This document shows positions 2,814 to 57,701 of a stretch of DNA of 64,000 nucleotides, piece after piece; the stretch's first letter is position 1, and the number at the start of each line of letters is the position of its first letter. The notes under the pieces were generated by a model that saw only the letters and a list, made by a program, of their open reading frames with translations, did not search any database and was not told where the DNA came from. The DNA is from an uncultured bacterium. GTDB lineage: Bacteria; Patescibacteriota; Minisyncoccia; Phycocordibacterales; Phycocordibacteraceae. The stretch is from contig CAIJZI010000008.1 in NCBI GenBank assembly GCA_903825105.1, forward strand, positions 8,401-72,400, read 5' to 3'. The position numbers were made by a program, and so were the translations under genes.

Positions 2814-3257
2814 AAAGACGATACGAAAGGCGTCATCAACCCATAAGAAGGTACCGGTGTACAAAAAGGCAACATAAGGCAAACGCCAAACACTGGGATT
2901 ATCCCCGGAATATATTTACCCATTATGTATGTTGCGGTCGGCACATTGTACATAGGGTAAAGTTGAGAATAGGGTCTGTATATTAATAACAAAGGCACGG
3001 ATGGCGGTATTGGCATTATGGTAAGTAACCAAGTCTGGCTACAAGTACAATATGTTGCGTTTGTTCTAATCCCTGAAAAAGGGATTCCTTTATCTAAATT
3101 TACAGCAAATGCTCTCGTGGGGAGTATTAGATTAGAAATTAAAAATATAATTAGTGTAAAAAACAGGAATCGAGTATGCATATTTATATAGTATCACCTG
3201 TTGGTGTAGATAACTGCCTCATTTACACTCATTACTGGTATACTTTATAGCGATACC

Positions 3258-6094: not shown

Positions 6095-8829
6095 TTATGA
6101 AAAAAATTCTCACGCTTTCATTCTTCGCTCTCGCACTATCTATTTTTGTATTTACATCTGCTGGTCACGCTCCGAGCGTGCATGCGCAAGCTGTTTGCAA
6201 GATAAATGCAGATTGTGCTACAGACTTCGTCTGTGCTTCAGGTACTTGTGTCCCACTATCAACAACTTCATCAATAATAGATACACAAATAGATACAACT
6301 TGTGCGAATGACCAGCAGTGCCCCGCAGGTCTTGTTTGTACCTCAGGTAAATGTGTAGACTCTGGCACTGACTCTGGCACTGCCGCGGCTTCTGCGAAGC
6401 CTGCCAGCGATGCGGGCACGAAGAACCCGACAAGTAATTTGCCACAGCTGCAAGACACCAGCGGAGCTCTCGGCTCGGTGATGAAGTACATAATGACCAT
6501 ATTCGCGTGGCTTCTCGGTATCGCTGCGATCACGCTCGATAATGCGGTCTACTACACCGTCATCACGATGGGGAATTATGTAAGCAATTTAAATGCCATC
6601 GGAGTAACTTGGCGCATACTGCGAGACATTGGCAACATTGCCTTCATCTTTGGATTTTTGATGATCGGTATCAACATCATTTTAGGTACCAACTTATACG
6701 GATGGGGACAAAAATTGATCTCGACGCTTCTTATCTCAGCGATTTGTCTGAACTTCTCGCTCTTCGCGACAGAGGCGATTATCGATGTGGGGAACTTATT
6801 CGCGACACAATTTTATACACAAATAAACGGTGGAGTGCCGGCACAGTCGACAGATCTTTTAAGCGCGAGCAATATTAATAATGAAGTCATTTCGAATAAA
6901 ATATTGTCCCAATTAGGGCTCGCGACTATTTATGGCAGGGCACTCACCAATACTGATGGATTCTTAGCGAATTCCACCGCGACAACGCTTGTCAGCTTTA
7001 TGAGCATTATCTTATTCCTTATCGCGGCGTTCGTGATGTTCTCGCTCGCTTTTATCCTTATCGCGCGGTTCGTTATTCTTATTTTTGTCATTATAGTTTC
7101 TCCTATTGCTGTAGCAGGGTTCGCTATACCTCCACTCGCCAAGCTTAAAGACAGTTGGATGAGTGCTCTCCTTGGGGAGACAATGACTGCGCCAGTACTC
7201 CTATTATTGTTGTATGTCGCTCTGGCTATTATCACGGATGCAAAATTTCTCGCTTTTGGTTCAGACAAGGCGGATTGGCTAGGCTTTGTAGAAAGTAGCG
7301 GTGGGGCAATGAATCTGACCGGCATGGCGGGGCTTATTCTCTCATTTATTGTAGCGATGGGGCTCCTGCTCGCTGTGGTTATGTATTCTAAAAAGCTCGG
7401 CGCCTTCGGCGCGAGCTGGGCATCGAAAACAGCGGGGAAGTTAACCTTCGGCGCGACCGCCTGGGGGATGCGACAAACAGCCGGAAGAGCATCACAACGA
7501 TTGTCGAATTATACTCGTGCGAATTTTGGAGGCAGTGTTCTCGGGAGAATTACTGCTGGTGGTTTCGACAAGGTCGCGGCGGGGAGTTTCGATGTACGCG
7601 GGTCGAATGCGTGGATTTCTGGGACGAAGGCTCTTGGCGGCGTTGAGGCTGGGGAAGCACAGAAGGGTGGCTTTAAAGCAATGCGGGATAATACAGTTAA
7701 GGAACACGAAGCATATCTTAAGACGGTCACTTCAGCGATTGAAGATAAGAATCTTAAAAAGACAACGGCAGCTGCGCAGGCACGAGATGTTGCTGAGGCA
7801 GCAGCAGCAAAAGAATTCAAAGAAGTAGAAGAACCGATAAAAGATATTAATAAAAAGATTACCGCAAACAATGAAGAGATTGGGAAATTAGAGAAAGCAG
7901 AAAAAGGTCTAGCCCCTCTCGTCGAAACGCAAAAGAAGGCAAGTGAAAGTTTCCAAAAAGCTGACGCAAAATTTGTACAAGCAACAGCAGAAAAAGAACA
8001 AAAAGAAAAAGAACAAGCAACGGCGCAAGAACAAAAAGCTGCTATTGAGGCTGAGCAAAATACGGCAGAAACAGAAGTCGAGAAGAAAAAGGCAGAAGTC
8101 GCGAGCTTGTTAGAAGCCAAAGAACGAGAAGAAAAATTCTCTCCAAACGGCAGAATGACCGAAGAAACTGAAAAGAATCTCGCGATTGCCCAGCAGAATC
8201 TCGCGGCTTCTCAAGCAGCTCTCACTGAAGCGGATGGTCGCCTAGAAAAAGCAGCAAAAGAGCTTGATGAAAAGGAAAAGGCTACAACAATAGCGGCTGG
8301 TAATCATAAAACAGCAAGAGAAACCAGAGAATCCGCTGGAGAAAGCCTTCGTGGAGTCACGGAAAAAGTTTCGAAAGAAGAGGAAAAACATAAACTCGGG
8401 ACACTCGACCAAGTTACTGGAAAATTAGCTACTTCTAAGGAAGATCTCGAAGCAAATAAAGGCGAATTACAAAAGAAGTCGAAGACACTCAATGAATTAA
8501 AAGGAAAGCTCAAAGATGCTGTCGACGCAGAAAAGAAACTGAGCGGCGAAATATCGGAAAAGCAAAAAAAGGCACAAGAAGGATATGCCAGCAGTATTTC
8601 TGGAGTCATGGGTCTCGCGTATGGTCCTGGAGGCGGCATTGCTGCTAAGAAGATAATTAAAGGAGCGATTAAAAAAGATAATAGTCTTGATAAGATTAAG
8701 AAGTTATTGGGAGAAAAAAGCGAAGATGATATGCTCGCTGATGCATACAAAGCGCAGTTAAAAAAACAAGTTGAAGAAGAAGCTGAAAAGACAGCAAAAT
8801 CAGCAGAACCGGCCGCACCAACTGCTTAG
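6091..8829 (+). CDS. large polytopic membrane protein (912 aa) with N-terminal Cys-rich module, at least 6 TM helices and a 450-aa KEKE-rich cytoplasmic coiled-coil tail; VirB6/TrbL-like architecture
   Basis: Signal peptide; TCANDQQCPAGLVCTSGKC module homologous to the upstream gene's; hydrophobic block about aa 130-430; long E/K-rich coiled coil. Confidence 0.65.
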   Translation: MIMKKILTLSFFALALSIFVFTSAGHAPSVHAQAVCKINADCATDFVCASGTCVPLSTTSSIIDTQIDTTCANDQQCPAGLVCTSGKCVDSGTDSGTAAASAKPASDAGTKNPTSNLPQLQDTSGALGSVMKYIMTIFAWLLGIAAITLDNAVYYTVITMGNYVSNLNAIGVTWRILRDIGNIAFIFGFLMIGINIILGTNLYGWGQKLISTLLISAICLNFSLFATEAIIDVGNLFATQFYTQINGGVPAQSTDLLSASNINNEVISNKILSQLGLATIYGRALTNTDGFLANSTATTLVSFMSIILFLIAAFVMFSLAFILIARFVILIFVIIVSPIAVAGFAIPPLAKLKDSWMSALLGETMTAPVLLLLLYVALAIITDAKFLAFGSDKADWLGFVESSGGAMNLTGMAGLILSFIVAMGLLLAVVMYSKKLGAFGASWASKTAGKLTFGATAWGMRQTAGRASQRLSNYTRANFGGSVLGRITAGGFDKVAAGSFDVRGSNAWISGTKALGGVEAGEAQKGGFKAMRDNTVKEHEAYLKTVTSAIEDKNLKKTTAAAQARDVAEAAAAKEFKEVEEPIKDINKKITANNEEIGKLEKAEKGLAPLVETQKKASESFQKADAKFVQATAEKEQKEKEQATAQEQKAAIEAEQNTAETEVEKKKAEVASLLEAKEREEKFSPNGRMTEETEKNLAIAQQNLAASQAALTEADGRLEKAAKELDEKEKATTIAAGNHKTARETRESAGESLRGVTEKVSKEEEKHKLGTLDQVTGKLATSKEDLEANKGELQKKSKTLNELKGKLKDAVDAEKKLSGEISEKQKKAQEGYASSISGVMGLAYGPGGGIAAKKIIKGAIKKDNSLDKIKKLLGEKSEDDMLADAYKAQLKKQVEEEAEKTAKSAEPAAPTA

Positions 8830-51325: not shown

Positions 51326-52489
51326 ATGAATCGCGCGGTATTCGCCGTTATTTTTTTATCAACGCTTGTTTCGGCGTTTATTTTTAACATTCCAAAAGCG
51401 TGTGCAGCAACAACACCCTTTGAAATTTCTGGGTGGATACCCTATTGGCGGGAGGCGACTGGCACGATAGATGTATTGCCACATATGAAGAGCATGACTT
51501 CGGTGATGCCCTTCGGCTACATCGTTCAAAATGATGGTGCTCTCTATGATGCATTCGGATTTAGCGCCACCTCTTCGGCGACCTCGAGCGTGAGTATTTT
51601 GTCGAGCGTGGCAAAAATCCAAAAAGTAAAAATAATCCCAACCGTGATGTGGAGTAATAGTGAAGCGATGGACAGAATTTTAAAAAACGCGACCACACGC
51701 CAGAAGCTCGAAGACGATATAGCGAATCTGGTGAAGCAAAATAATTTTGCCGGCATCGATATCGACTTCGAAAATAAGTTAGCAGAGACGAAGTCCTATT
51801 TCTCACTCTTTTTAAAGGGACTGTATATGCGCATGGGGCAAAAGCTGGTCTATTGTGCCATCGAGCCGCGCACTCCGCCCTCGTCTGCATTCGCAGTGAT
51901 CCCGAATCCGCTTCAATACGCGAATGATTATTCTGCGATAAATAAATACTGCGATCGTGTCGAGATTATGGCGTATGACCAGGGTAGGGTGGATATTAAA
52001 TTGAATGCTAACGCGAGCCCGACTCCGTATATACCGATATCTGATACGGCGTGGGTTAAAAAAGTGGTCGAGCTCACCGCCCAGTCTATTTCTAAAAAGA
52101 AAATAATAATCGGCATCGCCACCTATGGCTATGAATATGATTTGGTTAAGCTCACACAAGGATATCGCTATGATCTCGCGTGGACATTTAACCAGGGCTA
52201 TGCGACCGCGCTCGCTTCTGATCTCGGCCTTATCCCCACGAGAAATAGTGCGGGCGAATTAAACTTTATCTATACACCAACGACAACGCCGATGACGAAT
52301 ATCGTCGCTGCGAGCGCTTCAGCCGGCCCGATACCGGCGACGACAACGCCACAGAGAATCGTCTGGTGGAGTGACGCGAGCTCGGTGAACGATAAAATTC
52401 AATTAGCCAAACAACTCGGCGTGCGTGGTGTCGCCTTTTTTAAATTTGACGGCGGCGAAGACCAGAATATTTGGAATATTTTGCCCTAA
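51326..52489 (+). CDS. secreted glycoside hydrolase family 18-like protein
   Basis: Signal peptide; GIDIDFE (DxDxDxE) catalytic motif. Confidence 0.75.
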   Translation: MNRAVFAVIFLSTLVSAFIFNIPKACAATTPFEISGWIPYWREATGTIDVLPHMKSMTSVMPFGYIVQNDGALYDAFGFSATSSATSSVSILSSVAKIQKVKIIPTVMWSNSEAMDRILKNATTRQKLEDDIANLVKQNNFAGIDIDFENKLAETKSYFSLFLKGLYMRMGQKLVYCAIEPRTPPSSAFAVIPNPLQYANDYSAINKYCDRVEIMAYDQGRVDIKLNANASPTPYIPISDTAWVKKVVELTAQSISKKKIIIGIATYGYEYDLVKLTQGYRYDLAWTFNQGYATALASDLGLIPTRNSAGELNFIYTPTTTPMTNIVAASASAGPIPATTTPQRIVWWSDASSVNDKIQLAKQLGVRGVAFFKFDGGEDQNIWNILP

Positions 52490-52639
52490 AACAGATTAAT
52501 TTAACAAGATATTGAATCATCGTGGCGCTATTGACATTTTTGATATAGGTATGCTATACTAGATTTGGGTTGTGGAGGCCTTTGCCATCGTGGCAATATG
52601 TTTATCCACTGAAAGTACCTTTAACTGAAGGAGAGGGAA

Positions 52640-53467
52640 ATGAAAAAAATTTTGGCAATTCTCGGTCTCGTTGTAGTACTCAGTTTGACCGGCTGTACCG
52701 TTGCTTCGCCCGACGCCGGGCACCAGATGGTGTGGATGGAAAAGCCAATGTTCTTCGGGCATGGGGGGGTGGATTCTAACCCCGTCACTGCTGGGCGATC
52801 CTACGGCGCTATTACCAGCAATGCTATCGATGTGTACATGCAGCCCTACCGGTATGACATGGAATTCGACGACATGATGACCAAGAGTGGCGTCCCTGTG
52901 TCTTTCCATGTCGTGGCTACCTGTCAGATCACCGACTCCGTAAAACTGGTACGAGACTTCGGCTCAGACTTTGACGAGAAAACAGGGTACGGATTCTGGA
53001 CACGAAACCTCGACCAGCCCATCCGGACTGCCGTTCGGGACTCCGTCAAGCGACGCGATATGCAGGAAATGGCAATCGACCAAAGTGCCGCAGATGCTGT
53101 CGGTCAAGAAGTCGCAGAGGCCACGGTGAAAATCATTCAGAAGACGGGGGTGCCTCTCACTTGTACGGCCATCAACGTAGGCCGAGTAAATCCTCCAGAC
53201 GCCATCAAGAACCAGCGCGTGGAGACAGCTGCTCAAGAACAGAGGGCTATTACCGAGCAGCAGCGCAAGCTAGCCGAAGATCAGCGCAAGGCGGCTGAAC
53301 AGAGTCGCGCGGCGGCTGACAACGCTTACCGTCAGGAGATGCAGCTTTCGCCGGACCAATTCTTGCAGCTGGAGCGGATCAAGATGCAACGCGATGTCTG
53401 TTCAAGCGGTGGCAACTGTACCTTCTTCATCGACGGGAAGCCGACGCCTGTTGTAAATATGAAATAA
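52640..53467 (+). CDS. SPFH/band-7 domain lipoprotein
   Basis: Lipobox LSLTGC; SPFH core plus QRKLAEDQRKAAEQSRAAAD coiled-coil. Confidence 0.7.
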   Translation: MKKILAILGLVVVLSLTGCTVASPDAGHQMVWMEKPMFFGHGGVDSNPVTAGRSYGAITSNAIDVYMQPYRYDMEFDDMMTKSGVPVSFHVVATCQITDSVKLVRDFGSDFDEKTGYGFWTRNLDQPIRTAVRDSVKRRDMQEMAIDQSAADAVGQEVAEATVKIIQKTGVPLTCTAINVGRVNPPDAIKNQRVETAAQEQRAITEQQRKLAEDQRKAAEQSRAAADNAYRQEMQLSPDQFLQLERIKMQRDVCSSGGNCTFFIDGKPTPVVNMK

Positions 53468-53689
53468 CAATTATGGCATGTGGGAGATCTTAACGATCGT
53501 TACTACCACATGCCATTTCCATTTTTAGATAAAACTCGGTGGCGAAGAGCAGAATCTCTGGAATATTTTGCCCTAATCTGTTATACTAACAAGCGATGAG
53601 GCGATAACGCCTTGAATCGATCGGCTCGCGCCGATACGCAGCTTCTCCCGCTCGGAAGAAGTTTCTTTATTTCTTAACCTCAATTAAAA

Positions 53690-54214
53690 ATGAGTTATCA
53701 TACTATTCCACTAGGAAAGAAGTCGCCTGAAGTAGTCAACGCTGTTATCGAGATACCGAAAGGCGCTTCGGCGAAGTTTGAATATGACGAAGATCTTGAT
53801 GTTATCAAGCTTGACCGCGTGCTTCACTCAACGATGCACTACCCATTTGATTATGGCTTTATCCCCGAGACGCGGAGCGAAGACGGCGACCATCTCGATG
53901 TGCTCGTGATCGTCTCCGCGCCATTATTCCCCGGATGCATGGTCTCGGTGCGACCCATCGGTGCTATCGATATGGAGGATGAAGCAGGGAAGGATTGGAA
54001 GATAATCGCTGTGGCGAAGAAGGATCCGCGCGTGAAGAATGTTAAAACTATTGAAGATCTCGGCGAACATTTTAAAAAAGAGGTTCAGCACTTCTTCGAA
54101 GAATATAAAAAGCTTGAGGATAAATGGACGAAGATAAATGGCTGGCTTGGCTTAGACGAAGCGCACAAGATAATTAAAGAAGGGGCAGAGCGATTTGCAA
54201 AGGAAAAATATTAA
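53690..54214 (+). CDS. ppa: inorganic pyrophosphatase (family I)
   Basis: EIPKGASAKFEYD...DGDHLDVLV motifs. Confidence 0.92.
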   Translation: MSYHTIPLGKKSPEVVNAVIEIPKGASAKFEYDEDLDVIKLDRVLHSTMHYPFDYGFIPETRSEDGDHLDVLVIVSAPLFPGCMVSVRPIGAIDMEDEAGKDWKIIAVAKKDPRVKNVKTIEDLGEHFKKEVQHFFEEYKKLEDKWTKINGWLGLDEAHKIIKEGAERFAKEKY

Positions 54215-54282
54215 AAGTTGCGCCGTTCATTCCTTGAGAGTATTGTGCGTGTCAGAGGTCAATTTGTACAAGGAGGCGCTCC

Positions 54283-54684
54283 ATGGAAGGGATCAGTCGA
54301 GGAATGTGTTTAGAGATTTTCACGAATCCCCACGATCTTGAAATCGTTGTTTCCAAAGCAAAAAATTTCGATAAATGGGTCTTCGTTCTTACTCGTGGGC
54401 CGAGAGACAGACACAAGGTACTGTTGGAAGGAGGTTTTTTCAGACAGTCCAATGACGCGGTGGATACGATCAAAAAGATTCTCGAGGGAATTCTGGAATT
54501 CACCACAAAAGAGCTTAAAGACCCGAAGAGTCTCCTGACTGAGCTCATCAATTCTGATCATGAAGAAGTGATGGATCCTTCGAAGATTCTGACGCTCGAC
54601 CTGATCACTAGAATCGTCGAAGAACTTCAACAACATCAGACAGCGAGTACATACAAGATGATGGCTGCTGTTCCTGCTGTGTAA
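54283..54684 (+). CDS. hypothetical protein (133 aa)
   Basis: ORF followed by a terminator at 54707-54737; no recognisable domain. Confidence 0.4.
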   Translation: MEGISRGMCLEIFTNPHDLEIVVSKAKNFDKWVFVLTRGPRDRHKVLLEGGFFRQSNDAVDTIKKILEGILEFTTKELKDPKSLLTELINSDHEEVMDPSKILTLDLITRIVEELQQHQTASTYKMMAAVPAV

Positions 54685-54706
54685 ACAACTTCATTCAAAC
54701 ATCAAA

Positions 54707-54737
54707 TCGGCGACACGTGCGTGTCGCCGATTTTTTA
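54707..54737 (+). terminator. intrinsic terminator
   Basis: TCGGCGACACgtgcGTGTCGCCGATTTTTT. Confidence 0.75.
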
Positions 54738-55111
54738 CTACAGGATTCTGTCACGCGCCCTCCTAATTTCGCGGGGGATTCGAACCCTTTCGAATGGATT
54801 TTGGAGGATTGGAAATCAAGCAAGCAAAACGCTAATGAAACGAGATAATTAAAGGACTTATTAAAAAACTAACAATTCTCAATCGTACTCACAAACTATC
54901 AATTTTGGGCAACTTCTATCACTTTTTGGGCAACCGGAAATGCAACATTATTAGCGGGGAACAGTGCAGGCGTGAGTGATGAAAATTTTAAAACGCGACG
55001 AGACGGTGGTTTTTGTGTGGGTATGTTTATTGGTGACACATCATCACTCCGCCTCCGTTTTACTGCTTATCGTGAAATATGACTTCTGCCGTGAAATGAT
55101 AGTATTAACAT

Positions 55112-56755
55112 ATGGATGAGAATAAGTTGAGAGAAATTATAAGGTGTGCTCGCGAGAATGAGAATGTCGAGTTTAAGTCTGCATCAGACAGTTTTTCTGT
55201 CCTCGGAGGCGAAAGAGAGAATAAGAAATCTTTGTATGGATATTGTACAGCTATTGGTAACGAGGGAGGTGGGCGTATTGTTTTTGGAGTGACTGATGAA
55301 CGAGAGATTGTCGGAACGAAAGCTTTTCAAAATATTGAAGAGATCAGGTCTCAGATATACGAAAAAATGGGTGTTAAAATCGGTATTCAAGAATTTTTAC
55401 TACCGCAACGAGTTGTGGTTATTGATGTACCGGGACGGCAAATTGGTAAAATATTTACATTCCATAATCGGTATCTCACACGAGTTGGCGAAGAACTTGT
55501 AGAAATGAAACAGGATGAGATAGCTAAGATTCTTGCGGAGACGCAAGAGGATTTTTCAGCAAAATATTTGGATTTTGGATTAGAAGTGTTGGATCCGCAA
55601 GCTATAAAGAAAATGCGCGAATTATATGAGAAGAAGGCGTTAAGCACCACGAATGCTTCTAAAGCATCACTGACAGATGTTCAGTTTCTTTCCGATCTCG
55701 GGCTACTAAAGAACAATAAGATTAACAACTCAGCTTTGTTATTGCTTGGGACCACCGAATCATTACGTGATTTGCTTCCCGATGCAGAGATAATTTTTGA
55801 ATACAGAGTAAATCAAAATGATACACATTATTCCGACAGGTTGAATCTTCGCCAATCCCTAGTGTTTTCTTTGGATATTTTATGGGACAAAATAAATTCC
55901 CGTAACTTCGTGTCTCAATTACGTGAGCGCCTAATGCGGCGAGACATTCAGGCGTTTAACGAAGATGTAGTTCGTGAAGCCATGAATAATGCTGTGGTGC
56001 ATAGAGATTACCAAGCGCATAAATCAATATTCGTGCGCCAAGATAATACAAAGATAGTCTTCGAAAACCCGGGAGGTTTTATGCCAGGAATTACGCCGGA
56101 AAATATCTACAATCAAACTGCCTATAGAAATAGGCGACTGGCTGAATCGTTTGAAAAAATTGGTCTAGTTGAACGGTCTGGGCAGGGTGCGAATCTTATC
56201 TTCGAGAAGAATATTCGTGAAGGTAAAGGCATCCCAAAATATGAGACCACACAATATGATGTGTCGCTGTCTTTGTCAGCCCTTATTAAAGATGAAGAAA
56301 TCATTACCTATTTGGACGAGATAATTCAAAGCAAACAACTGGCTTTAACTGTTGATGACTTGGTGATTCTTGAAAAGATAAAGGATAGAACGTCCAAAGG
56401 GATAATGAAGAGAGATGTACAGAAATTTATTGATGCAGGGGTTGTTGTGTCCGACGGTGTTGGTAGGGGAGTGAAGTATTTTCTATCGAAGCAGTATTAT
56501 AAAGATCATGACAGACTTGGTGAATACACGAAGATTAAGGGACTGAGTCGGGCCGGTATCAAAGAACTAATTCTTGAACACCTTAATGCCAATAAGAAAG
56601 TAACCGCAAAGGAATGTCAGCAAATATCGCCAAACTTGAGCCCGAAAGACGTCGATAATATTTTACAAGAATTACGCAGAGATGAAAAAATCAAATTCAT
56701 TACATTTTCAGGAAACAAGAAGAATGGGCATTGGATTCTAATAGGTGAAAACTAG
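55112..56755 (+). CDS. Schlafen/AlbA_2 domain + HATPase_c_4 (RecG-C-like) putative ATP-dependent DNA-binding regulator or defence-type protein
   Basis: N-terminal YGYCTAIGNEGGGRIVFGV (AlbA_2-like); central NAVVHRDYQAHKSIFVRQDNTKIVFENPGG (HATPase_c_4 hallmark); AT-rich versus neighbours. Confidence 0.7.
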   Translation: MDENKLREIIRCARENENVEFKSASDSFSVLGGERENKKSLYGYCTAIGNEGGGRIVFGVTDEREIVGTKAFQNIEEIRSQIYEKMGVKIGIQEFLLPQRVVVIDVPGRQIGKIFTFHNRYLTRVGEELVEMKQDEIAKILAETQEDFSAKYLDFGLEVLDPQAIKKMRELYEKKALSTTNASKASLTDVQFLSDLGLLKNNKINNSALLLLGTTESLRDLLPDAEIIFEYRVNQNDTHYSDRLNLRQSLVFSLDILWDKINSRNFVSQLRERLMRRDIQAFNEDVVREAMNNAVVHRDYQAHKSIFVRQDNTKIVFENPGGFMPGITPENIYNQTAYRNRRLAESFEKIGLVERSGQGANLIFEKNIREGKGIPKYETTQYDVSLSLSALIKDEEIITYLDEIIQSKQLALTVDDLVILEKIKDRTSKGIMKRDVQKFIDAGVVVSDGVGRGVKYFLSKQYYKDHDRLGEYTKIKGLSRAGIKELILEHLNANKKVTAKECQQISPNLSPKDVDNILQELRRDEKIKFITFSGNKKNGHWILIGEN

Positions 56756-56889
56756 GAAGAAAATAGGAGGAAATATGAAAATTAATACGAAAAATAAGGA
56801 TACTATTTAGATTCTAATAGGTGAAAAATAGGAAGAAAAGTTGAGCGGAAATTAAGTCGACAGACCTTTCGGATTCCGATTTTCAATTT

Positions 56890-56981
56890 TGGCGGAGGGG
56901 GAGGGATTCGAACCCTCGATACGGTATTACCCGTATAGCGAGTTAGCAACCCGCCGCACTAGGCCTCTATGCGACCCCTCC
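56890..56981 (-). tRNA. tRNA-Ser (anticodon GCU), class II long variable arm, CCA encoded
   Basis: Hand-folded from the sequence: acceptor GGAGGGG/CCCCTCC, anticodon stem GCGGG/CTCGC, loop TTGCTAA, variable arm ATACGG/CCGTAT, T-arm GAGGG-TTCGAAT-CCCTC, discriminator G + CCA. Confidence 0.85.
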
Positions 56982-57005
56982 ATGCTTGTTTGAATTTTAA
57001 CAAAT

Positions 57006-57701
57006 TCAGTGCGCTAAAGCGAGCGGGATTATATTTTGTGCTCCAGCTTTTTTAAGTGCGTCAATTGCAGCTTGGAGTGTTGCGCCGGTTGTGAGGACAT
57101 CGTCGAGGATTATGAAAGTGCTTTTAGAAATTTCGTCATGGCTTATCCGCCTTCGTTCAAAGAACTTCGGCGTGACGAGGAATGCGTCTTTCATATTCTT
57201 TTCTCTTTCGTGGCGCGGGAGCGAGACTTGGGAGGTTGTTTCGCGGGTGCGCTCGAGGACATTCTCGACCAGCGCGCAGCCAAGCTGCTTGGCTGCGCGG
57301 TTCGCCACTTCTTCTACTTGATTATACCCGCGCTCTTTTTGGCGTTTTTTACCAAGCGGTATCGGAACCAAAACAAGGTTCGACCTTGAGGATTCGGATT
57401 TAAGGTCGAACCTTGTTTTTGGGAGATCATCGGCATCGTGCAGATATTCTAAAACTGCGAGCGAGAGGAGTTCGAAGGCGCGTCCATTCCCATGATATTT
57501 TGCTTCGTGGATTGCGGCGCGTACACGCTCGTCGTGATAGGGCAGGAGCGCGACCGTGCCGGGCCGAGTTTCTGGCACGAGCCGAGGCGCGACAAGAGCG
57601 AGGAACTCATCTGTTGAAATATCCCTCGACACGAGTTCGTCTGCACGAGGAGGAAAAATGAAATCTAAACACCTGTGGTGAATGAAATTGAACCAGCGCA
57701 T
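57006..57701 (-). CDS. comF: ComF-family phosphoribosyltransferase-domain protein
   Basis: C-terminal PRTase motif IILDDVLTTGATL. Confidence 0.7.
   Translation of the reverse strand: MRWFNFIHHRCLDFIFPPRADELVSRDISTDEFLALVAPRLVPETRPGTVALLPYHDERVRAAIHEAKYHGNGRAFELLSLAVLEYLHDADDLPKTRFDLKSESSRSNLVLVPIPLGKKRQKERGYNQVEEVANRAAKQLGCALVENVLERTRETTSQVSLPRHEREKNMKDAFLVTPKFFERRRISHDEISKSTFIILDDVLTTGATLQAAIDALKKAGAQNIIPLALAH

Follow-up and report, generated by a model that had tools for sequence, protein, structure and literature searches.

Phages, integrative and conjugative elements (ICEs) and similar integrative elements use attachment (att) sites whose target is the 3' end of a gene or of a tRNA, and they carry a replacement end with them; integrase-less forms are also known, among them cis-mobilizable elements (CIMEs) and pseudo-staphylococcal cassette chromosome (pseudo-SCC) elements. 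A phage "moron" is a lone gene that has a promoter and a terminator of its own and deviates in composition. C-terminal (3'-end) displacement is described for Rhs, contact-dependent inhibition (CDI) and type VI secretion system (T6SS) effector-immunity loci by Kirchberger et al. (2017, PMC5361080), citing Jackson et al. (2009), and homology-facilitated illegitimate recombination was put forward for the displaced "orphaned 3' regions" of Rhs/T6SS effector loci (PMC5361080). Here we describe a locus within 64 kb of DNA from an uncultured bacterium (contig CAIJZI010000008.1; this whole stretch is called the window, and coordinates are window positions) in which the 3' end of a glycoside hydrolase family 18 (GH18) gene recurs, as a dead copy, on the far side of a foreign gene for an SPFH/Band-7 lipoprotein.

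The genomes of Patescibacteria are minimal, and a life on other bacteria is assumed for the group; most of what is known of its gene gain comes from statistics rather than from footprints at junctions. The locus described here is an acquisition scar resolved to the base pair and free of mobile-element machinery, with a parallel scar in a distant relative.

A Repeated GH18 Gene End

The GH18 gene (51326-52489, forward strand) is intact and encodes a protein of 387 aa with a signal-peptide-like N-terminus, a PF00704 domain (E = 1e-22, 81.7 bits) and the catalytic motif DIDFE. The DxDxE signature is present as GIDIDFE, and D145, D147 and E149 are among the invariant columns of the family. Alignment confirmed that the 3' end of this gene forms one half of a genuine 40-nt direct repeat, with copy A at 52450-52489 and copy B at 53537-53576, both on the forward strand, 36 of 40 positions identical and a spacing of 1087 nt. 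An earlier note made from the letters of this DNA had reported such a recurrence after the SPFH gene, and its identity is not near background: a degenerate 36-mer fitting both versions found no third place in the window and had no matches in 100 shuffles. The coordinates given in that note were essentially right for the second copy and about 5 nt off for the first, where the start of GGCGGCGAAG is at 52451 and the last base of TTTAACAAG at 52508. At the end of the repeat lies an 18-nt block, TGGAATATTTTGCCCTAA, that is perfect in both copies; neither this core nor the repeat has a third copy elsewhere within the window.

Copy A is the functional GH18 tail (..D GGEDQNIWNILP*), comprising the last 13 codons and the stop, and ends with the TAA at 52489; the C-terminus it encodes, FKFDGGEDQNIWNILP, conforms to the family consensus FK[LIF]DGGED..[LI]W..LP. 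Copy B is an orphan, non-coding GH18 tail that was also recovered by nhmmer with a profile of GH18 tails (E = 9e-4). Read in the GH18 frame it gives LGGEEQNLWNILP*; four codons upstream of this the frame is interrupted by a TAG (HF*IKL GGEE...). The bases that differ between copies A and B are C/T, C/G, A/C and T/C, three of them at third codon positions, and the codon differences are GGC/GGT, which is synonymous, GAC/GAG, and ATT/CTC, an Ile/Leu exchange between two residues that are each common in the family. Copy B's G at repeat position 13, which turns GAC into GAG and Asp into Glu, occurs in none of 81 related tails, all 81 of which have Asp. Because of this unique change at a family-invariant residue, together with the upstream in-frame stop, we call copy B a dead, non-functional duplicate of the GH18 tail; the GH18 gene itself is intact. 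The two copies are nevertheless each other's closest match among the 81 tails (33 of 37 positions).

Similarity past the stop codon is weak and consists only of the collinear islands TAACAAG and TTGAATC(G)ATCG (Smith-Waterman against shuffles, p = 0.02), identity falling from 90% over 40 nt to about 50%, with indels, over the next 35 nt; copy B is non-coding throughout. A candidate extension on the upstream side, CCTTTTTTAAAT against CCATTTTTAGAT, was below significance by the same method (p = 0.16).

The SPFH Cassette

The 1047 nt that separate the copies make up a complete unit of expression, with promoter, Shine-Dalgarno sequence, lipoprotein gene and terminator, in agreement with the earlier description of a bracketed segment of about 1.05 kb that carries an SPFH/band-7 lipoprotein with a lipobox and a hairpin. 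The promoter, TTGACA-18-TGcTATACT (52531-52560, forward strand), is of the extended -10 type and matches the consensus at 11 of 12 positions; the pattern TGnTAnAnT has just four occurrences in the window, every one upstream of a gene. The Shine-Dalgarno sequence GGAGAGGG (52630-52637) ends 2 nt (AA) before the ATG of the SPFH gene (52640-53467, forward strand), which encodes 275 aa beginning with MKKILAILGLVVVLSLTGC. The protein carries an SPFH domain (PF01145, E = 1e-11; 45.5 bits, above the Pfam gathering cut-off of 23.6) and matches PHROG 200, "lipoprotein" (E = 5e-18). The lipobox LTGC ends its signal peptide, and the Cys is invariant across 24 homologues. The gene is followed by an intrinsic-terminator-like hairpin with a U-tract, UUUCCAUUUUU, behind it (53473-53528; arms 53473-53486 and 53503-53516). 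The hairpin is strong, its folding energy of -21 kcal/mol (z = -4.6) being equaled by none of 200 shuffles. The insert has no terminal inverted repeats.

From these signals the SPFH gene would be transcribed independently from its own strong promoter and translated from a strong Shine-Dalgarno sequence, and read-through from GH18 would also be possible, since no terminator follows copy A. Export, lipid modification at Cys19 and anchoring on the membrane's outer face as an SPFH scaffold are predicted for the product.

The SPFH gene is foreign, as indicated by its composition, its phylogeny and its absence from 84 related GH18 loci. Its GC content is 0.546, and 0.634 at third codon positions (GC3), against a GC3 of 0.37-0.59 in neighboring genes and a GC content of 0.474 for the window. 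With phylogeny and absence from related loci, this supports the earlier reader's view that DNA was inserted at the GH18 3' end. Nor is the gene a standing companion of GH18 in relatives that lack the duplicated segment: all 84 loci are without it. Hundreds of homologues share 70-81% identity with the SPFH protein, and those in reference genomes are nearly all from Terracidiphilus and other Acidobacteriaceae, with a separate clade in Saccharibacteria-type metagenome-assembled genomes. In neighbor-joining trees the window protein nests within the acidobacterial radiation, in a subclade with Terracidiphilus sp. SPRUCE 346 (L015/L008, 80%) and the proteins P0123, P0124 and P0136; the Terracidiphilus and phage-like homologues are 75-80% identical to it. 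These three proteins are located in same-strand arrays of mostly Pfam-less open reading frames (ORFs), and the neighbors of P0136 (L143, 1744-4852) include matches to phrog_10079 and to a phage topoisomerase PHROG (1e-95 and 1e-110), on a contig whose GC content of 54% is the same as that of the window SPFH gene. At the DNA level, similarity to homologues does not extend beyond the coding region and reaches at most 76%, and the cassette's promoter and terminator have no DNA homology to Acidobacteria loci; the promoter region has a host-like look, and the non-coding flanks of the insert are both host-like and unique. Our conclusion is that horizontal transfer from Acidobacteriaceae or their phages, possibly via intermediate hosts, brought the gene in. 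The relatives of this cargo hint that Terracidiphilus-type Acidobacteria and their phages share DNA with the patescibacterial lineage.

Several observations concern the wider SPFH family, which may travel as a phage lipoprotein gene. The Saccharibacteria-type copies (L042-L046; about 4001-4837 in L042 and L044) have a GC3 of 0.63-0.73 within flanks of 36-46% GC and look like further unameliorated transfers. On viral-catalogue contigs of 36% GC (L136/L137) we found a fully ameliorated copy (GC3 0.28) whose homology is apparently split over two frames. An origin in a heat-shock locus (hsp20-SPFH-clpB) was considered and dropped; this context is confined to one Terracidiphilus species and is not functional evidence.

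The Locus in Related Genomes

The window comes from a Paceibacteria-type patescibacterium. Its GroEL, DUF378, GH18, phosphoribosyltransferase and PilM genes are syntenic with Patescibacteria/Paceibacteria contigs, and every homologue of its GH18 protein (53-71% identity) belongs to Patescibacteria/Paceibacteria. In L004, L005 and L049, the closest syntenic relatives, the GH18 stop is followed after 2-17 nt by a convergent tRNA-Ser(GCT), and then by the phosphoribosyltransferase and PilM genes. The window places the counterpart of this tRNA (56890-56981, reverse strand) far downstream, where it forms the right border of a variable segment that contains, besides the SPFH cassette and copy B, ppa (53690-54214), orf133 (54283-54684) and an AlbA_2/HATPase_c_4 gene (55112-56755), all on the forward strand. 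Since the tRNA abuts GH18 in the closest syntenic relatives, the 4.4 kb at 52490-56889 are extra or rearranged in the window. The gap between GH18 and tRNA-Ser varies in other lineages as well. Among the 84 related loci neither ppa, orf133 nor the AlbA_2 gene adjoins GH18, and ppa is never found within 7 kb of it. The idea that an ancestral, uninterrupted GH18-ppa arrangement had been split was therefore not supported; the closest syntenic relatives have tRNA-Ser in that place. No empty site was present among the loci compared, of which the nearest GH18 locus is 71% identical.

The arrangement in the window is not an assembly artefact, because contigs that are 100% identical across the junctions were recovered in several independent assemblies (L001, L002, L003, L131 and L142).

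The DNA behind GH18 also varies elsewhere in the group. Between tRNA-Ser(GCT) and the phosphoribosyltransferase gene, L004 has an extra segment of about 300 nt (6100-6360), which ends in a partial second copy of the 5' half of the tRNA, broken by a GC-rich hairpin. In L006 (6172-10852), and also in L007, the DNA after GH18 holds small ORFs together with DUF5320, DUF134, ParB_N and an N6/N4 methyltransferase, with no tRNA-Ser; this island is probably mobile or plasmid-derived. The GH18 3' region of L006/L007 also matches a site 1.1 kb downstream over 16 nt, which was set aside as probably due to chance, since the similarity stops at once.

A Second Orphan Tail in a Distant Relative

When 85 loci were searched by nhmmer with the profile of GH18 tails, orphan tails were found in two of them, the window and L072, a distant relative whose GH18 is 55% identical to that of the window. 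The L072 gene ends in ..DGGEDQGIWGVLK (1868-1912), and an orphan reading PDGVEDQNIWNALK lies 620 nt further on the same strand (2528-2572; E = 4e-5), with a single gene, for an NYN domain protein, on the reverse strand between the two. The L072 tails differ by two Gly-to-Asn replacements, each of 2-3 base changes and each giving a residue of the family consensus. What follows tail 1 is native, as it is shared with the 85%-identical congeners L075 and L076, and it runs for 68-110 nt past the tail, whereas a different terminator and then a helicase-like gene come after the orphan, unrelated to the sequence after tail 1. Because one flank is native and the other different, the L072 orphan is not a local target duplication, and judging from the two tails and their flanks its best reading is that a second GH18 allele supplied this tail. 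The orphans of the window and L072 start at the same point of the tail, at a GC-rich GGCGGCG (profile positions 12-15 of 48).

Directly after GH18, a TTGACA..TATAaT promoter-like element is conserved in L072 (1913-2025), L075 (2881-3000) and L076. About 40 nt beyond it come a hairpin, in which base changes are compensatory, and a T-tract, so that the whole may be either a conserved module for termination or the gene of a small RNA. In L075 (about 3060-3125) and L076 only the last 30-60 nt or so remain of a gene from the ABC-transporter region that is complete in L072, where the corresponding stretch lies at 6500-6536. This remnant was left by deletion and so represents another route to orphan tails.

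How the Orphan Tail May Have Arisen

The reading we favor, to which we give about an even chance of being correct, is that the 3' tail was displaced by recombination between diverged (homeologous) GH18 loci of related Patescibacteria. The incoming DNA would probably have been taken up by natural transformation. Homologous pairing of one of its ends would take place in a conserved flank (the GH18 body or, in a mirror version, tRNA-Ser and its neighbors), and the other end would join illegitimately at a CGGYGGCG microhomology, GC-rich and about 37 nt upstream of the GH18 stop. Of the two GH18 tails, one would then stay on the gene and the other would be pushed about 1.05 kb downstream as an orphan. 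The incoming DNA could be either the SPFH side or the ppa side, and either tail may be the resident one; no enzyme encoded by an element would be required. Natural competence and homologous recombination have been shown in Saccharibacteria (PMC10633639), competence in that group only. Horizontal transfers into Patescibacteria come mostly from other Patescibacteria, with occasional donors from other phyla (PMC12455944).

Displacement draws its support from the significance of the repeat, the foreign SPFH gene, the tRNA that abuts GH18 in relatives, the lack of a recombinase among the scanned ORFs and of terminal inverted repeats, and L072. The window and L072 share what such an event would leave, an orphan 3' end downstream on the same strand with non-homologous DNA in between. 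That the differences, few as they are, lean toward third codon positions, and that similarity is lost abruptly once the stop is passed, looks more like two alleles that were both once functional than like a fresh duplicate decaying uniformly, and in L072 the multi-base Gly-to-Asn changes and unrelated downstream sequence favor a different allele as the source. The earlier note had left the choice between target duplication and gene-end capture open. Gene-end capture fits better, because three of four differences are at third positions, the fourth is Ile/Leu, similarity collapses after the stop and the L072 flanks differ; target duplication fits less well, yet is possible in the window.

Several points weigh against displacement. 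With no parental or empty-site genome, and the closest GH18 just 71% identical, the event is not reconstructable, and the adjacency of GH18 and ppa that either polarity requires in some close lineage is unseen in the 84 loci. Four differences do not suffice for statistics, since three or more of them would fall at third positions with a probability of about 0.11, and the uneven conservation of copy B could reflect selection as part of a ppa promoter. Orphan tails were found in only two of 85 loci, and their shared start position could equally indicate a sequence-specific process.

Copy B might instead have arisen in place, the SPFH cassette having entered through illegitimate recombination or repair, with duplication of about 40 nt or more of the target; in a variant of this account, the GH18 tail was first duplicated in tandem, the cassette landed between the copies and copy B then drifted. 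We hold these two versions, taken jointly, to be possible but on balance unlikely. It speaks for them that the copies resemble each other more closely than they do any other GH18 tail and share the position of the stop, that weak collinear matches persist beyond it, and that the unique change at the invariant Asp of copy B is as in a decaying copy; a repeated tail of the AlbA_2 gene (see below), which has no inserted gene, shows that local tail duplications occur in this genome. A duplicate made in place would not, however, readily explain why a sequence that is non-coding throughout keeps 90% identity in 40 nt and only about 50%, with indels, in the next 35 nt, nor why three of four differences sit at third codon positions, nor why the two L072 tails have unrelated sequences downstream. 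To our knowledge a 40-nt target duplication is far beyond what known transposases make, and we count this against the idea as well. That two ancestral GH18 genes flanked SPFH, the downstream one being lost save for its last 40 nt, is very improbable. Such deletions do occur in the group, as the ABC-transporter remnant in L075/L076 attests, but no relative has tandem GH18 genes (there was one GH18 match per locus), SPFH is clearly a late foreign arrival, and the tails are near-identical, unlike those of old paralogues.

The perfect 18-nt block inside imperfect arms, the preserved reading frame of the target gene, the shared start of the L072 orphan and the variable gap between GH18 and tRNA-Ser in several lineages would all suit a site-specific integration, with the GH18 tail as attachment site, TGGAATATTTTGCCCTAA as its core and a non-autonomous attL/attR cassette served by a recombinase encoded elsewhere. 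We nonetheless think this improbable. About 29 ORFs scanned across the window include no integrase or recombinase, no third att copy is present although other cargo follows, the core lacks dyad symmetry, just two of 85 loci are affected, the native sequence extending 68-110 nt beyond tail 1 in L072 would not be left by a crossover inside the tail, and five Saccharibacteria-type SPFH loci have no flanking repeats. A bolder form of the idea, which we rate as slightly more doubtful still, makes the GH18 tail beside tRNA-Ser a dedicated landing site of Paceibacteria, where an as yet unrecognized system acting in trans cuts or recombines at GGCGGCGAAGA and regenerates the gene end. If true, single-gene cargo would be slotted behind GH18 (SPFH here, NYN in L072), and would include genes from the host of the episymbiont or from host phages, pointing to Terracidiphilus as that host. 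Lastly, an Acidobacteria or phage gene might have been stitched into a patescibacterial contig at a shared k-mer. Chimeras do exist in this material, as L129 and L142, from the same project, carry unrelated DNA of 25-27% GC fused at A/T-rich points, but we judge an artefact of this kind extremely improbable: the path from GH18 through SPFH and copy B to ppa is identical across several samples and different pipelines, the non-coding flanks of the insert are host-like and unique, and the SPFH gene is at most about 80% identical to known homologues.

The L129 contig (foreign part at 1-168) was considered as an alternative context for copy B, with its break at 53515/53516. Its ORF is unique and without a viral match, and L142 (1-165) has a like AT-rich fusion in the middle of GH18 (at 52090); both were therefore taken as probable chimeras and given zero weight. 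An AT-rich mobile element in a subpopulation is also conceivable as the source of these fusions.

Other Features of the Variable Segment

The segment is a mosaic in GC content, which declines from 0.55 in SPFH to 0.46 in ppa, 0.44 in orf133 and 0.39 in the AlbA_2 gene, with 0.47 for the window. NCBIfam gave no name for any gene in the segment, no known RNA family besides the tRNA was found at 52300-57100, and no integrase, transposase or reverse transcriptase was present among the scanned ORFs. A tRNA-Ser fragment beside either copy, as would be expected of a tRNA-targeting island, was not detected, the alignments being no better than shuffles. Type IV pilus genes (PilM, T2SSE) adjoin the locus.

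The AlbA_2/HATPase_c_4 protein has weak partial PADLOC matches to pAgo-associated SIR2-PNTD models (E = 1e-11) and may be a foreign defense or regulatory protein. The tail of its gene (..HWILIGEN*, the last 40 nt or so plus a few downstream bases) is duplicated at 56714-56763 and 56790-56839, the copies being 80% identical, 76 nt apart, just before tRNA-Ser and with no inserted gene between them. With a second tail duplication in the same 4.4 kb, gene-end junction scars therefore recur here.

Directly after copy B lies an extended -10-like element, TGTTATACT (53579-53587, forward strand), a possible promoter of ppa for which copy B would supply the spacer and -35 region. A second terminator-like hairpin with a U-tract was predicted between copy B and ppa (53640-53677, forward strand) from the minimum-free-energy structure, and is weak (z = -1.8 for the whole 163-nt stretch). 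Together with TGTTATACT, this hairpin and U-tract, which lie in the ppa leader of about 95 nt, could form a promoter/attenuator arrangement.

Comparison With Known Systems

The locus reveals no new kind of system and is a fairly ordinary footprint of gene transfer. A scar without mobility genes, with a parallel in a distant relative, fits uptake of DNA followed by illegitimate recombination anchored by homology.

Its direct repeats around inserted DNA resemble the target-site duplications of insertion sequences and transposons, but the repeat is 40 nt long and 90% identical, not 2-15 nt and identical, and inverted ends and a transposase are missing. Integrative elements that target 3' ends offer a nearer likeness, with direct repeats of the target end bracketing the added DNA, an intact ORF and an identical core within imperfect repeats; the locus departs from them in that no integrase was found among the scanned ORFs, there is no evidence of excision, the cargo is 1 kb, and native sequence follows the functional tail in L072. 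Two other kinds of element were considered and rejected. In a template repeat/variable repeat pair of a diversity-generating retroelement the mismatches would be confined to adenines, which they are not here, and there is no reverse transcriptase among the scanned ORFs. An integron cassette is disfavored by the lack of an integrase, by an RYYYAAC-like heptamer that occurs only in the flank of copy A, and by the cassette's own promoter, which is atypical for integron cassettes.

Considered by itself, the SPFH cassette is like a phage moron in being a self-contained unit of promoter, gene and terminator with atypical GC content, a match to PHROG 200 and homologues in phage-like arrays; unlike a moron, it sits between housekeeping genes in a cellular chromosome, with no surrounding prophage. 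The way in which the cassette is proposed to have been placed has its counterpart in the displacement described for Rhs, CDI and T6SS loci, where the conserved body of an upstream gene likewise serves as anchor, new DNA arrives downstream, and the former 3' end is shifted downstream as a same-strand orphan with no recombinase. Natural transformability of the host may be a further feature in common, by analogy with Saccharibacteria. The differences lie in what is carried and exchanged: the anchoring gene here encodes a GH18 hydrolase and no polymorphic toxin, the two tails encode the same peptide, so that there is no functional swap, the orphan spans 13 codons, the cargo is a lipoprotein gene instead of an immunity gene, and a single step takes the place of an array.

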